From: a virus
Taxonomy: Duplodnaviria > Heunggongvirae > Uroviricota > Caudoviricetes
Reading direction: 5' to 3' (one strand)
Length of the DNA stretch: 4,470 bases
IMG/VR virus record: IMGVR_UViG_2675903409_000005
Shown: positions 118 to 4,470 of the stretch, piece after piece
Layout of the letters: each line of letters begins with the position of its first letter
Position numbering within the stretch: the first letter of the stretch is position 1
The notes under the pieces: model-generated
What the model was told of the DNA's origin: nothing
Database searches by the model: none
Seen by the model: the letters and a program-made list of their open reading frames with translations, nothing else
Position numbers and translations under genes: made by a program

Positions 118-1614
118 ATGACGATAAGTTTTAATACTGTTCCGTCGAATACGCTGGTGCCGTTGTTCTACGCCGAGATGAACAATTCTGCGGCAAATAC
201 AGCGGTGACCAGCGCGCCTGCATTACTGATCGGGCATGCCAGCAACGATGCAGCCATTGAGGTTAACAGCCTGGTGCTGATGCCATCGGCAGATTATGCC
301 CGCCAGATTTGTGGGGCGGGGAGCCAGCTGGCGCGTATGGTGGAAGTCTACCGTCAGACAGATCCTTTCGGTGAACTGTATGTTATTGCAGTACCGGAAG
401 CCAGAGGGGCGGCGGCGACGGTCAGGGTGACGGTTGCCGGAGAAGCAGAGGAAAGCGGCACCCTGAGTCTGTATGTCGGGCGCTCCCGTGTACAGGTGCC
501 TGTGGTGAATGGCGATGATGCCACTGCGGTTGCCACCGCGATTAAGGAAGCGGTAAACGGGGTTATCACCCTGCCGTTTACGGCGTCATCTGATGCAGGT
601 GTGGTGACGCTGACTGCCCGTCATAAGGGGCTGTATGGTAATGAGTTACCGGTCTGTCTGAATTATTATGGTTCTGGTGGTGGTGAGATTCTGCCAGCAG
701 GGCTTCGGGTGGTGACGGAAGTCGGTGCTGCCGGTAGCGGAGCGCCTGATCTTACCGCCGCTGTTGCTGCTATGGGCGATGAGGCATTCGACTTTATCGG
801 TCTGCCGTTCAACGATGCCGCCTCCATCAATATGATGATGACCGAAATGAATGACAGCAGCGGTCGCTGGAGTTATGCGCGCCAGTTATACGGGCATGGC
901 TATACCGCAAAACTGGGAACGCTGTCAGAGCTGGTTGGTGCCGGAGATATGCATAATCAGCAACATATCACGCTTGCCGGTTACGAAAAAGAAACCCAGT
1001 CGCCTGTCGATGAACTGGTTGCCAGTCGCCTTGCCCGTGAAGCGGTATTTATCCGGAATGATCCTGCCCGTCCGACACAGACGGGGGAGCTGGTGGGGAT
1101 GCTTCCGGCACCGAAAGGTAAGCGATTCATCATGACAGAGCAGCAGACCCTTTTATCTCACGGCGTGGCGACGGCTTATGTGGAAGGCGGCACGTTGCAG
1201 ATCCAGCGTTCCGTAACCACCTACAAAAAGAATGCGTATGGCGTGGCAGACAACAGCTATCTGGACAGTGAAACTCTGCATACCAGTGCATATGTTCTTC
1301 GCAAACTGAAATCGGTCATCACAAGCAAGTACGGACGTCACAAGCTGGCAAATGATGGTACCCGTTTTGGTCCGGGGCAGGCGATTGTCACTCCTGCCGT
1401 TATCAAAGGGGAACTTCTGGCGACATATCGTCAGATGGAGCGTGCCGGTATTGTGGAAAATTACGATCTGTTTAAACAGTATCTGATAGTTGAGCGTGAT
1501 GCAGATAACCCGAACCGACTGAATACGCTGTTCCCGCCGGATTATGTTAATCAGTTACGTGTCTTTGCGGTGGTTAACCAGTTCCGTCTTCAGTATTCAG
1601 AGGAGTCAGCATAA
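118..1614 (+). CDS. Contractile phage tail sheath protein (Mu gpL-like)
   Basis: 498-aa ORF, first ATG after in-frame stops at 103-105 and 109-111. AAGG at 104-107 lies 10 nt upstream of the ATG. Length and N-terminal sequence fit the ~500-aa Mu-type sheath family as I recall it. It is followed directly by tube, chaperone and tape measure genes on the same strand. Its stop overlaps the next start (TAATG at 1612-1616). Confidence 0.85.
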   Translation: MTISFNTVPSNTLVPLFYAEMNNSAANTAVTSAPALLIGHASNDAAIEVNSLVLMPSADYARQICGAGSQLARMVEVYRQTDPFGELYVIAVPEARGAAATVRVTVAGEAEESGTLSLYVGRSRVQVPVVNGDDATAVATAIKEAVNGVITLPFTASSDAGVVTLTARHKGLYGNELPVCLNYYGSGGGEILPAGLRVVTEVGAAGSGAPDLTAAVAAMGDEAFDFIGLPFNDAASINMMMTEMNDSSGRWSYARQLYGHGYTAKLGTLSELVGAGDMHNQQHITLAGYEKETQSPVDELVASRLAREAVFIRNDPARPTQTGELVGMLPAPKGKRFIMTEQQTLLSHGVATAYVEGGTLQIQRSVTTYKKNAYGVADNSYLDSETLHTSAYVLRKLKSVITSKYGRHKLANDGTRFGPGQAIVTPAVIKGELLATYRQMERAGIVENYDLFKQYLIVERDADNPNRLNTLFPPDYVNQLRVFAVVNQFRLQYSEESA

Positions 1615-1970
1615 TGGCAAAGATCGCCGGAACCTGTTTTTTTAAAGTGGATGGTCAGCAGTTATCGCTGACAGGTGGCATTGAAGTGCCGATGAACACC
1701 AATGTCCGGGATGACATCGTCGGCATGGCAGGGGATGTGGATTACAAGGAGACCTGGCGGTCACCTTACGTTAAGGGCACGTTTAAAGTGCCCAAAAACT
1801 TTCCGGTCGACAAAATTACCACCTCAGACCAGATGACGATTACCGCTGAGCTGGCAAACGGCATGGTGTATGTGCTTTCGGCGGCATGGCTGCACGGAGA
1901 GGCTAATCATAATGCCGAAGAAGGCACGGCAGATCTTGAATTCCACGGCGAAGAGGGAGGGTATCAGTAA
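1614..1970 (+). CDS. Phage tail tube protein (Mu gpM-like)
   Basis: 118-aa ORF. AGGAG at 1601-1605 lies 8 nt upstream of ATG 1614. Start overlaps the sheath stop and its own stop overlaps the next start (TAATG at 1968-1972). The small size and position directly after the sheath gene are typical of myovirus tube proteins. Confidence 0.8.
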   Translation: MAKIAGTCFFKVDGQQLSLTGGIEVPMNTNVRDDIVGMAGDVDYKETWRSPYVKGTFKVPKNFPVDKITTSDQMTITAELANGMVYVLSAAWLHGEANHNAEEGTADLEFHGEEGGYQ

Positions 1971-2305
1971 TGGCAATGAACGTTACAGAAATAGTTTTAA
2001 AAAAACCGGTGACAGCGCATAACGAAATGCTGCATGTGCTGGAGTTGCGCGAGCCCACGTATGACGAAATCGAGGCGCTGGGTTTTCCTTTCATTATTTC
2101 CGGTGAAGGCAGTATTAAACTGGACAGCCAGGTGGCACTGAAATATATCCCGTTGCTGGCGGGGATCCCGCGTTCATCGGCGGCGCAGATGGCAAAACTG
2201 GATATTTTTAAGACCAGCATGCAGATCCTGCGTTTTTTTACCCAGTCGGAGACGGGAAGCACCTCCGGAAACGACTCTACAATGTTGCCTGGTTCTGGAA
2301 ACTGA
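1970..2305 (+). CDS. Tail assembly chaperone (lambda G / Mu gp41-like), zero-frame product
   Basis: 111-aa ORF between the tube and tape measure genes. GGGAGG at 1955-1960 lies 9 nt upstream of ATG 1970. The conserved position and an overlapping -1 frame ORF reaching the tape measure start are the hallmarks of chaperone genes. Confidence 0.7.
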   Translation: MAMNVTEIVLKKPVTAHNEMLHVLELREPTYDEIEALGFPFIISGEGSIKLDSQVALKYIPLLAGIPRSSAAQMAKLDIFKTSMQILRFFTQSETGSTSGNDSTMLPGSGN

Positions 2306-2397
2306 ATCCACTGGAGCTGCGACGGGGGGCTGTTTCGCAGTTTACAGAACTGGAAGCCGAGGCCGTCCGCATTAACGAGGAGATGAAGCATGGCTGA
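1970..2397 (+). CDS. Tail assembly chaperone, candidate -1 frameshift fusion product (GT-like, about 142 aa)
   Basis: Frame 1 is open from 2212 to TGA at 2395-2397. A T-TTT-TTT heptamer sits at 2233-2239 in the zero frame (codons cgT TTT TTT). After a -1 slip, translation continues YPVGDGKHLRKRLYNVAWFWKLNPLELRRGAVSQFTELEAEAVRINEEMKHG and ends 5 nt into the tape measure ORF. Confidence 0.5.
2233..2239 (+). promoter_or_regulatory. Candidate -1 ribosomal frameshift slippery heptamer (T TTT TTT)
   Basis: Seven consecutive T in X-XXY-YYZ register relative to the chaperone zero frame. It lies inside the only interval (2212-2305) where both the zero frame and the -1 frame are open. Confidence 0.45.
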
Positions 2398-4203
2398 CAG
2401 TTTTCAGCTGAAGGCGATCATCACTGCCGTGGATAAGGTATCGGCACCGCTGAAGGGAATGCAGCGCCAGCTGAAAGGTTTTAAAAAGGAGTTTGCCAGC
2501 CTGTTACTGGGCGCAGCGGGTGCCGGAACCGCAGTACTGGGGGCGCTGGCGCTCCCNNNNNNNNNNNNNNNNNNNNNNNNNNNNNNNNNNNNNNNNNNNN
2601 NNNNNNNNNNNNNNNNNNNNNNNNNNNNNNNNNNNNNNNNNNNNNNNNNNNNNNNNNNNNNNNNNNNGCAGAAGAATCCGGTCAGATGATGGCGCAGTGG
2701 CGCACTGCCTTTAAACTGACACAGGGAGAGGTGGCAGGGCTTGCGGATAAGATTAACTATCTTGGTAATACCGGTCCTGCAAGTGCGAAAAAGATTTCTG
2801 ATGTTGTGACCCGTATTGGCCCTTTAGGCAGTGTTGCGGGTGTGGCCTCCGGAGAGATTGCCGCAATGGGGGCAACCATTGCCGGAATGGGGGTGGAGTC
2901 AGAAATTGCTGCGACGGGGATAAAGAATTTTATGTTGTCGCTGACAGCGAGGGATTCTGCCACCAAATCGCAGAAAAAAGTGCTCCGCTCGTTGCGCATT
3001 AGCCCGAAAAAACTGGCGGCGGATATGCAGAAAGACGCCCGCGGGGCCATGCTGCACGTACTGGATTCTCTGGCAAAAGTGCCGAAAGAAAAACAGGCTG
3101 CTGTGCTGAAAGCGCTGTTCGGGAAGGAATCCCTGGGGGCCATTGCGCCGCTGCTCACGAATCTGGATTTGTTGCGAACCAACTTTAATCGTGTGGCGGA
3201 TGCGCAGCAGTATGGCGGCTCAATGCAGAAAGAATATGCCGCCCGTGCCGCGACGACAGAAAATCAGTTGTTGCTGCTGCAGAACCAGATCAATGCGATT
3301 TCTTCCACGCTGGGGGAAACCTTCCTGCCTTCACTCAATGAAGGCATAAAAGAGATGAAGCCTTTTCTGGAAGAAGTGCGCACGTTTGTCAGAGAAAATC
3401 CTGAGGTCGTAAAAACCATCGCGAAAACTGGTGCGGCATTACTGACGATGGGCGTGGCGATTGGCACATTGACACGCATAACAAAAATCATGGGTAGCGT
3501 GATGAATATGACGCCGGCAAAGGGATTAATTGCGCTTCTCGTCGGTGGTGCATATCTCATAATTGATAACTGGGAAACGGTCGGTCCGGTTGTGAAAAAA
3601 GTCTGGCAGGAGGTTGATCAGGTTGTCAGAGCAATGGGGGGATGGGAACAGGCAGTAAAAACAATAGCAACGGTTTCTGCCCTGTATATTGGTGTGAAGG
3701 CGGTGGCAAGTATTCGTGCGGCAACAGTCGCCCAGAATCAATGGACAACGGCGGCAGGAAAAACAGGGCTGAAATTAAAGGGCCTCGGAAAGATCAGTCT
3801 GATTGGTGGATTGCTTGAACTGGGCATGATGGCGCAGGAGTTTGAAAAAGCACATCCCTGGCTTGTTAAAAATTTTGTGGCTGATGCACTGAACAGTGGA
3901 TTTGGTCTGAATGATAAGTTCGACGAGTGGGGCAAACAGTTCCATGATTTTGTCTATGACATGACCGGATGGCAGATGCCACGTGGTGATGGGTATTTAT
4001 CTCCCGATAAACGCTACACCCCGAATGTATCACTGGAAAGGAATCAGCTGTTAAGCCTTGCATCTTCACCGGCAACCCGCAGCGAACTTAAGGTGACGTT
4101 TGACAACGCGCCGCCTGGAATGCGCGTTATCGATTTGCCGAAAACAGGCGATCCCTTTATGAAAATCACCCATGATGTTGGGTATTCTCCATTTAAAAGG
4201 TGA
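2390..4203 (+). CDS. Phage tail tape measure protein, interrupted by the N run at 2557-2667
   Basis: GAGGAG at 2377-2382 lies 7 nt upstream of ATG 2390. The N-terminal part (MADSFQLKAIITAVDKVSAPLKGMQRQLKGF...) runs into the N run. After the N run, frame 1 is open immediately (AEESGQMMAQW...) and continues to TGA at 4201-4203. The protein is long, Ala/Gly/Lys-rich and largely helical-looking, with hydrophobic segments (GLIALLVGGAYLII, ISLIGGLLELGMM) typical of tape measure proteins. Frames before and after the N run differ by one, so the N count is not the true length or the gene carries a frameshift. The ATG at 2686 from the ORF track is probably internal. Confidence 0.8.
2557..2667. other. 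Run of 111 N (assembly gap or masked sequence)
   Basis: Directly visible in the sequence. It lies inside the tape measure coding region. Confidence 0.95.
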
Positions 4204-4270: not shown

Positions 4271-4402
4271 GTGATAAAGCCATTTTTAATGACGGTTGCA
4301 ATATTAACCTCTTGCTGTGCTCAGGCGAAAATACTAACAAATGAGGAGATTGTTTCACGATTTATTAGTAACGTTAAAACGGTGATGCTGCCAACTTACT
4401 GA
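4271..4402 (+). CDS. Hypothetical small ORF with a lipoprotein-like signal peptide, 3' end replaced by IS1 sequence
   Basis: GGAG at 4259-4262 lies 8 nt upstream of GTG 4271. Translation is (M)IKPFLMTVAILTSCCAQAKILTNEEIVSRFISNVKT, with a short hydrophobic N-terminus and a lipobox-like LTSC. From codon 37 onward the ORF reads into the IS1 terminal repeat, so the native C-terminus is unknown. It is not in the supplied ORF track. An alternative ATG at 4341 (MRRLFHDLLVTLK) is also cut by IS1. Confidence 0.2.
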   Translation: MIKPFLMTVAILTSCCAQAKILTNEEIVSRFISNVKTVMLPTY

Positions 4403-4470
4403 TTTAGTGTATGATGGTGTTTTTGAGGTGCTCCAGTGGCTTCTGTTTCTATCAGCTGTCCCTCCTGTTC
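4381..4470 (+). mobile_element. IS1 insertion sequence, left end (terminal inverted repeat and 5' region), partial at the window edge
   Basis: GGTGATGCTGCCAACTTACTGATTTAGTGTATGATGGTGTTTTTGAGGTGCTCCAGTGGCTTCTGTTTCTATCAGCTGTCCCTCCTGTTC matches the canonical IS1 left end as I recall it, including the ~23-bp terminal repeat GGTGATGCTGCCAACTTACTGAT. insA begins at element position 56, as in IS1. Confidence 0.9.
4436..4470 (+). CDS. insA: IS1 InsA (transposition regulator), 5' partial, continues beyond the window
   Basis: GTG start at 4436 with GAGG at 4425-4428 7 nt upstream. Translation (M)ASVSISCPSCS matches the InsA N-terminus, including the start of its CxxC zinc-finger motif. Confidence 0.85.
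   Translation, partial: MASVSISCPSC

Follow-up and report, generated by a model that had tools for sequence, protein, structure and literature searches.

The stretch of DNA analysed here over its whole length (4470 bases, IMG/VR record IMGVR_UViG_2675903409_000005; referred to throughout as the window) carries the tail module of a contractile-tail prophage. We are concerned with the gene that lies between the tube gene (PF10618) and the tape-measure gene (PF10145), as the position of a G/GT-type chaperone gene requires, and with the programmed −1 frameshift that an initial annotation had proposed for it. The open reading frame (ORF) of this gene matches the Pfam family PF10109 (Phage_TAC_7, entitled 'Phage tail assembly chaperone proteins, E, or 41 or 14') with E = 6e-7 and 29.8 bits against a cut-off of 25, and the family phrog_166 ('tail protein') with E = 3e-24; its RefSeq relatives carry the label 'phage tail assembly protein'. 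The product of 1970-2305 would be a chaperone for tail assembly in a contractile-tail prophage of Escherichia coli/Shigella that resembles Mu and SfV. The features of the locus are the following.

1970..2305, + strand: tail assembly chaperone ORF, 111 amino acids (aa), equivalent of P2 gpE, Pfam PF10109 (Phage_TAC_7)
2233..2239, + strand: slippery heptamer T TTT TTT, of the form X XXY YYZ in the zero frame; codons cgT TTT TTT, Arg-Phe-Phe
2239..2397, + strand: −1 extension of 52 codons plus TGA, equivalent of P2 E', recognized by translation and coding signature; accessible solely through recoding
2240..2305, + strand: dual-frame overlap, with the zero-frame tail TQSETGSTSGNDSTMLPGSGN above the −1 frame YPVGDGKHLRKRLYNVAWFWKL
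2306..2389, + strand: apparent intergenic gap of 84 nucleotides (nt), coding in the −1 frame by entropy
2377..2382, + strand: putative Shine-Dalgarno (SD) sequence GAGGAG of the tape-measure gene, separated by 7 nt from the ATG that follows at 2390; a presumed ribosome binding site

Anatomy of the slippery site and of the extension

The codons of the zero frame around the site are cgt (2231), ttt (2234), ttt (2237) and acc (2240), which places the heptamer at 2233-2239 in register, as the initial annotation had it. The −1 frame is open from 2212 to 2397, and within the stretch 2212-2305, where it runs alongside the zero frame, this is the sole in-frame heptamer of the X XXY YYZ type. After a slip, reading would continue with tac (2239) cca gtc and so on, yielding the extension YPVGDGKHLRKRLYNVAWFWKLNPLELRRGAVSQFTELEAEAVRINEEMKHG, whose 52 aa are identical to those translated originally and would bring the fusion to 142 aa. 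The extension also shows weak matches to two small PHROG families, 32181 and 11318. The zero-frame tail is a Ser/Thr/Gly/acid-rich segment of 21 residues beyond the site. The stop codon of the extension is the TGA at 2395-2397, and the fused ORF overlaps the tape-measure ORF (start 2390) by 8 nt; the 5 nt given in the initial annotation hold for the last sense codon, which ends at 2394, but not for the overlap with the stop included. Both the GAGGAG and the tape-measure ATG sit inside the codons for the conserved C-terminus ..INEEMKHG* of the extension (2377-2397). The 8-nt overlap is the same as that of P2 E+E' with T, and suggests a possible translational coupling.

Taken as a single sequence the site is not remarkable, because two other in-frame heptamers of the window, at 2820 and 3636 in the tape-measure gene, are also followed by −1 ORFs of 58 aa; in total there are 10 in-frame heptamers of this type in the window. 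It is the comparison with relatives that argues for 2233, strongly for this site and negatively for the control sites. As a negative control we used the second in-frame T TTT TTT of the window, which lies in the tube gene at 1637-1643 (tgT TTT TTT aaa) and from which a −1 slip would meet a TAA immediately. This run is not conserved, as most relatives read tgt tat ttc at its place, and it is probably an accident of the lineage. Three other heptamers of the chaperone gene, T TTA AAA (1996), A AAA AAA (1999) and G GGT TTT (2080), were rejected as slip sites since their −1 peptides would be of 5-6 aa, and the heptamer at 2820 was rejected because its −1 ORF fails the coding test described below. 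The overlapping pair T TTA AAA and A AAA AAA (1996-2005) is common to the window and phiP27 and is absent from more distant relatives.

Conservation of the slippery site and of the extension

Homologues were searched for in collections of viral and genomic contigs using the N-terminal domain alone, in order to avoid selecting for the extension; the query for the genome contig scan was a 4-sequence alignment. The resulting set of 120 loci, which ranges from Enterobacteriaceae to Pseudomonas, Burkholderia and Rhodocyclaceae, corresponds to 81 distinct sequences of the region, down to approximately 32% identity. The initial annotation had stated that homologues lacking a conserved −1 ORF or slippery site, or with a poorly conserved extension, would speak against a frameshift; on each of these points the homologues come out in its favour. 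An in-frame slippery heptamer is found in 78 of the 81 distinct sequences (77 T TTT TTN and 1 G GGT TTT), always at the Phe-Phe position that closes the shared domain, and in each of these 78 it is followed by a −1 ORF of 48-64 aa, with all but one reaching at least 50 aa. In the 12 loci formed by the window and 11 annotated relatives, the end of the −1 ORF falls in a span that reaches from 3 nt upstream to 10 nt downstream of the start of the tape measure, and all 11 annotated relatives show a gap of 84-141 nt before the tape measure. When the fused protein was compared by tblastn with the phage collection, 19 of the 30 records listed gave a match in two pieces and two frames; these include phiP27, SfIV, ST64B, three Yersinia phages, Pantoea AH07, Edwardsiella EPP-1 and Paraburkholderia IPK. 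The extension shares the motif Y-N-V-A-x-F-W-[KR]-x-N-P...A-x-R-I, and is kept down to about 30% identity over the whole protein. In SfV-type relatives the zero-frame stop comes 3 codons past the heptamer.

The codon 5' of the two Phe codons can be cgT, aaT, ggT, agT, ccT or gaT, thus specifying six amino acids with an invariant T; the first Phe codon is invariably TTT, while the last base of the heptamer can be T, C or G. This constraint, recognizable at the nucleotide level in the aligned sequences, is the X XXY YYZ rule, the signature expected of tandem tRNA slippage.

Three of the 81 sequences are exceptions. Two of them have the chaperone and the extension fused in frame: in a ST64B-type contig (L073, 1752-1759) through a run of eight T (T8), and in a window-type contig (L013, near 1800) through a 1-nt insertion of G downstream. 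A fused protein of the ST64B type (WP_001676089.1, 139 aa) is deposited as an ordinary protein, and is found on 20 contigs, one of which is named for Salmonella Dublin. Such alleles would make only the long form and, by analogy with lambda, may mark tail-defective prophages if the lambda ratio rule holds. The third exception, Paraburkholderia phage IPK, lacks the heptamer and is considered further below.

Coding signature of the −1 frame

A coding test was carried out on the 54 distinct sequences that share the geometry of the window, by calculating the mean column entropy for each codon position. In the segment 2306-2394 the entropies at positions 1, 2 and 3 of the −1-frame codons are 0.33, 0.21 and 1.04, to be compared with 0.46, 0.28 and 1.05 in the upstream, zero-frame part of the chaperone gene, which served as a control. 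Since this pattern equals that of the established coding region upstream, the 84-nt gap shows the evolution of a −1-frame coding region, so that the earlier proposal that the extension fills this gap is borne out, as is the variability at third positions of the −1 frame that had been recommended as a check. The 58-aa −1 ORF after the heptamer at 2820 behaves differently as a negative control: its values are 1.00/0.27/0.10, and its variability tracks the zero frame. In terms of mean pairwise identity, the zero-frame tail scores 0.59, the −1 frame within the overlap 0.69, and the −1 frame downstream of it 0.81. On the minus strand, the sole candidate for an opposing gene behind this conservation is an antisense ORF of 162 aa (1903-2391), which covers the whole chaperone/extension region; it is probably spurious, since the variability is phased to the frames of the + strand.

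Independent initiation of the extension was considered and rejected, as there is no start in the window and none conserved in relatives. In the −1 ORF of the window there is no ATG, GTG or TTG that would leave at least 20 codons, and the same is true of 43 out of 69 distinct −1 ORFs; in the remaining ones the candidate starts occur at no conserved position, and mostly within or after the conserved motif. A real coding region without a usable start implies that the extension can be reached only by recoding from the chaperone ORF.

Relationship to the chaperone pairs of P2, lambda and Mu

As a family profile we used an alignment of 20 diverse fused proteins. PF10109 is matched by all 20 of them (best E = 1.7e-20), and alignment of the profile with P2 E+E' by hhalign extends over 124 columns across the shift site, with 92.6% probability and E = 4.4e-7, and with the GFF of the family opposite the GFL of P2. 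The P2 record itself carries an annotated −1 frameshift (ggT TTT TTG at position 679 of our P2 locus, E of 91 aa, E+E' of 142 aa), and programmed −1 frameshifting at T TTT TTG in P2 is attributed to Christie et al. 2002 in the passage of PMC3091744 that cites it. The likeness between the two systems involves the N-terminal domain, which belongs to the same Pfam family; the heptamer, which occupies the same ..G-F-F/L position (ggT TTT TTG in P2, ggT TTT TTC in SfV, cgT TTT TTT in the window); the length of the fusion (142 aa in both); the 8-nt overlap with the start of the tape-measure gene, which in P2 is gene T; and the downstream structure, which is found in neither, its lack in P2 having been reported (PMC3091744). 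There are also differences. The zero-frame product is of 111 aa in the window and 91 aa in P2, with 21 and 7 residues, respectively, beyond the site; the heptamer ends in T rather than G; the neighbouring sheath and tube genes of the window are of Mu/SfV type and not of the P2 FI/FII type; and the demonstrated frameshift is that of P2, the one in the lineage of the window being predicted.

The initial annotation had recognized here the conserved arrangement of lambda G/GT. The −1 ORF, the heptamer and its conservation, and a gene position flanked by the major tail/tube gene and the tape-measure gene all agree with this view, but the relative in sequence is P2 E+E' and not lambda: on the sequence evidence, P2 E/E+E' appears as the homologue and lambda G/GT as a functional analogy. 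As in lambda, the two products would have their N-terminus in common and depend on a −1 slip at low level that requires no structure, and the chaperones of both systems are presumed to work in the same way. In lambda, G and the G part of GT bind the tape measure while the T domain binds the tube subunit, with a ratio of approximately 30:1 (PMC5009743); the mechanism and its conservation in long-tailed phages have been reviewed (PMC5009743), and conservation of the tail frameshift is also mentioned where the KS10 paper cites Xu et al. 2004 (PMC2628397). The two systems differ in the heptamer (G GGA AAG in lambda, T TTT TTT in the window) and in the tail, which is non-contractile in lambda and part of a myovirus module in the window. 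No sequence similarity to lambda G was detected, the sole Pfam match being to the P2 E/Mu gp41-type family.

With Mu the module shares a homologous order of sheath, tube, chaperone and tape-measure genes, and, ahead of the tape measure, a gap of some 140 nt; Mu gp41 is named among the members of PF10109; the ST64B and SfV records cite the Mu sheath and tube as relatives of the module. Only gp41 is annotated in the Mu RefSeq record. In the gap between gp41 and gp42 (2553-3131 of our Mu locus, L121), the +1/−2 frame encodes a segment (...GPEWALSLPLSRFFRHCQQAKTL...; in the longer form ...AIGVILKSGPEWALSLPLSRFFRHCQQAKTL...) similar to the E' motif, which agrees with the −2 frameshift reported for the gp41 region of Mu by Xu et al. 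2004, as quoted in PMC2628397. The Mu extension is in the +1/−2 frame with no T-run heptamer, whereas that of the window is in the −1 frame, and the match of the family profile to a Mu fusion joined by hand is weak (probability 16%, E = 0.0016). Of the comparisons with known chaperone pairs, the one with P2 runs through the shift site, the one with Mu is weak, and for lambda G no similarity emerges.

The closest phage relatives of the chaperone are phiP27 L46, SfIV gp12, ST64B Sb15 and SfV orf13, whose N-terminal domains are 44-100% identical to that of the window and whose heptamer position and extension are the same; the SfV subgroup differs in having T TTT TTC. An unexpected role has been claimed within the PF10109 family: Burkholderia gladioli Bg_9562, a protein with the Phage_TAC_7 domain, is reported to be a secreted antifungal effector (PMC5581363). 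A homologue from the B. gladioli phage BgVeeders33 (L012) is present in our set.

Proposed mechanism

From the observed anatomy, conservation, constraint on the −1 frame and homology to P2 E+E', we infer the ribosomal nature of the slippage, its efficiency and the chaperone function of the products, in the manner outlined here. A programmed −1 ribosomal frameshift at 2233-2239 is in our opinion the highly likely explanation of the comparative data. Most ribosomes would read straight to the stop at 2303-2305 and produce the 111-aa protein. A minority would slip with two tRNA-Phe on the TTT at 2234-2236 (P site) and the TTT at 2237-2239 (A site); both tRNAs would re-pair one base back, on 2233-2235 and 2236-2238, and reading would resume at tac (2239) in the −1 frame, to end at the TGA at 2395-2397. 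The long product would consist of the shared N-terminus of 90 residues and a C-terminal domain of 52 residues, for a total of 142 aa. If the parallel with lambda G/GT and P2 E/E+E' holds, both products would coat the tape measure protein via the shared N-terminal domain, the rarer extension domain would recruit tube subunits, a fixed ratio of short to long form would be needed for the correct assembly of the tail, and neither protein would be retained in the virion.

A stimulatory RNA structure is apparently not involved. The folding of the sequence downstream of the site does not differ from that of shuffled sequences (z = −0.19 for the 91 nt of 2240-2330, and z = +0.23 for the 51 nt of 2240-2290), RNAalifold predicts no pairs in an alignment of 14 homologues, and no SD-like motif was recognized 5' of the heptamer in the homologue contexts viewed by eye and not scored. 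Both U_UU.U_UU.U and U_UU.U_UU.C are among the heptamers that support −1 frameshifting above 0.1% in E. coli when no stimulator is present, and UUUUUUU otherwise occurs less often than expected in the genes of this species (PMC4066793).

Several observations weigh against this interpretation or parts of it. With neither a stimulatory structure nor an upstream SD found, the efficiency of the shift may be low. The homology to P2 is suggested by Pfam PF10109 and one profile comparison, and membership of the extension in the E' family by the profile alignment: the extension of the window gives no match to PF06528 (Phage_P2_GpE) at E≤0.1 and only 1 of the 20 family members does (E = 1.2e-5), pairwise BLASTP against P2 E+E' finds no match, and a search of NCBIfam returns none. 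A search of PDB sequences with the family profile also gave no match. The heptamer is replaced in Paraburkholderia phage IPK (L008, 1765-1812, a record marked UNVERIFIED) by C TTC TTC with two −1 stops after Phe-Phe; IPK retains an E'-like extension in the −1 frame, with only about 8 nt of room for a shift (GAG GGC GCG TAA), and this exception is explained either by faulty sequencing or by recoding at another site. An IS1 element is inserted downstream in the host prophage, such that expression of the module may have ceased in this strain. Finally, the insertion of one base in the run of seven T (T7) yields the identical protein, which leads to the alternatives.

Alternative explanations

The most serious alternative to a ribosomal frameshift is transcriptional slippage, in which RNA polymerase adds one U at the T7 in some transcripts, and normal translation of these produces the ...RFFYPVG... 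fusion. The avoidance of UUUUUUU in E. coli genes has been attributed in part to transcriptional slippage or indels (PMC4066793), and alleles with T8 at the DNA level (L073, and WP_001676089.1 on its 20 contigs) indicate that the run is indel-prone. Weighing against this mechanism are 14 of 68 distinct heptamer contexts, in which, as in P2, only a run of six T is present (T TTT TTC or T TTT TTG), and the one homologue whose heptamer, G GGT TTT, is not homopolymeric. A run of six T is shorter than those known to us to support useful polymerase slippage. Likewise, the asymmetry of the constraint, with the 5' wobble T fixed and the 3' base free, fits the re-pairing of tandem tRNAs rather than a requirement for run length. 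We therefore regard transcriptional slippage as an improbable source of the fusion, while polymerase slippage may make a minor contribution at T7.

A further reading gives the instability of the T tract a function of its own. Since T8 alleles occur in L073 and, with WP_001676089.1, on 20 Salmonella contigs, the T7 tract can be regarded as indel-prone in DNA, and it could act as a heritable switch of tail production in resident prophages, either on/off or in the ratio of the products; alternatively, polymerase and ribosome slippage could jointly set the ratio of short to long form. We hold this to be more doubtful still than transcriptional slippage. If true, either version would depart from the fixed-ratio model of lambda.

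It could also be argued that the ancestral gene was a single ORF of 142 aa with a T8, inactivated by deletion of one base in a decaying prophage. In-frame fused alleles do exist (the T8 of L073 and the G insertion of L013), the ST64B-type fused protein is deposited as an ordinary one, and the prophage carries insertion sequence (IS) elements. Yet the two-frame arrangement is that of 78 of the 81 distinct sequences, among which the fused alleles are rare exceptions, and it spans several bacterial orders, including the isolated, plaque-forming or inducible phages phiP27, SfIV, SfV, ST64B, YeP1-3, AH07, EPP-1, PG1 and BgVeeders33; moreover, the ratio of short to long product is reported to be crucial for tail assembly in lambda (PMC5009743). 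We give a pseudogene origin very little credence. No greater credence is due to a chance overlap, in which the −1 ORF would be fortuitous, the 84-nt gap intergenic and the 111-aa protein the sole product: two more heptamers of the window have 58-aa −1 ORFs and no second product is annotated in any of the 11 annotated relatives examined, but the third-position variability of the gap, unlike that of the 2820 control, equals that of real coding sequence, the extension is conserved to about 30% whole-protein identity and is homologous to P2 E', and the non-functional T7 of the tube gene is not conserved in relatives, such that the coding test and the constraint on the heptamer, with its control, effectively refute it.

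Genomic context of the tail module

The remaining genes of the module are the following.

118..1614, + strand: tail sheath gene, with Pfam Phage_sheath_1, Phage_sheath_1C and Phage_sheath_domII
1614..1970, + strand: tail tube gene, Pfam PF10618 (Tail_tube), E = 1e-33, directly 5' of the chaperone gene
2390..4203, + strand: tape-measure gene, Pfam PF10145 (PhageMin_Tail), E = 3e-28, a tape measure also in the annotation of relatives

The window shares 99.8% identity with a prophage of E. coli FDAARGOS_944, its closest complete relative, 99.7% with prophages of one Shigella flexneri and one E. coli genome across an overlap of 2.1 kb, and approximately 96.5% with the Stx phage phiP27. The run of N at 2557-2667 (111 bases) corresponds to 247 bases in close relatives (4958-5204 of L001, the FDAARGOS_944 prophage). 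The change of frame in the tape-measure gene (frame of 2390 versus frame of 2686) is only apparent, because the N mask replaces these 247 nt; in relatives the tape measure is one gene of about 1950 nt.

The last 90 bases of the window (4381-4470) are the end of the IS1 element, which overlaps the ORF at 4271-4402 and has 100% matches to labelled IS1 transposase regions in thousands of plasmids; the similarity to the FDAARGOS_944 prophage ends at 4380. The element interrupts a lipoprotein-like ORF (MIKPFLMTVAILTSCCAQ...), which in FDAARGOS_944 encodes a hypothetical protein of 161 aa. Conversely, the sheath gene is intact in the window, and is interrupted by ISEc60 in FDAARGOS_944 (1215-4015 of L001). 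Both copies of the prophage look like cases of IS-mediated decay, at different places.

Significance

The frameshift of tail assembly chaperones is, as a phenomenon, already textbook knowledge, best proven in lambda and P2, and nothing new is added here to the biology of recoding. The literature searched contained nothing relevant on a frameshift in SfV or SfIV; the table of Xu et al. 2004 lay outside this comparison, and SfV, ST64B or phiP27 are possibly already listed in it. A fusion or joined coding sequence (CDS) is annotated in none of 11 records (RefSeq E. coli, phiP27, SfIV, ST64B, SfV, YeP2, AH07, EPP-1, DVM-2008, PG1 and BgVeeders33), and the fused sequence of the window was not found in a collection of 15 billion proteins. 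The main value of these results is for annotation: a joined CDS would correct records that show a single 'tail protein' followed by an unexplained gap of 84-141 nt, and would shed light on prophage alleles defective in tail formation, among them the fused variants with T8.

The lineage concerned comprises the phiP27, SfIV, SfV and ST64B types of E. coli, Shigella and Salmonella, with relatives in Yersinia, Pantoea, Pseudomonas and Burkholderia. To judge from the comparisons presented here, these phages very probably make also a second, frameshifted chaperone of about 140 aa. The E/E+E' solution of P2 would in this way be extended to tail modules with a Mu-like sheath and tube; Mu itself is reported to use a −2 frameshift.

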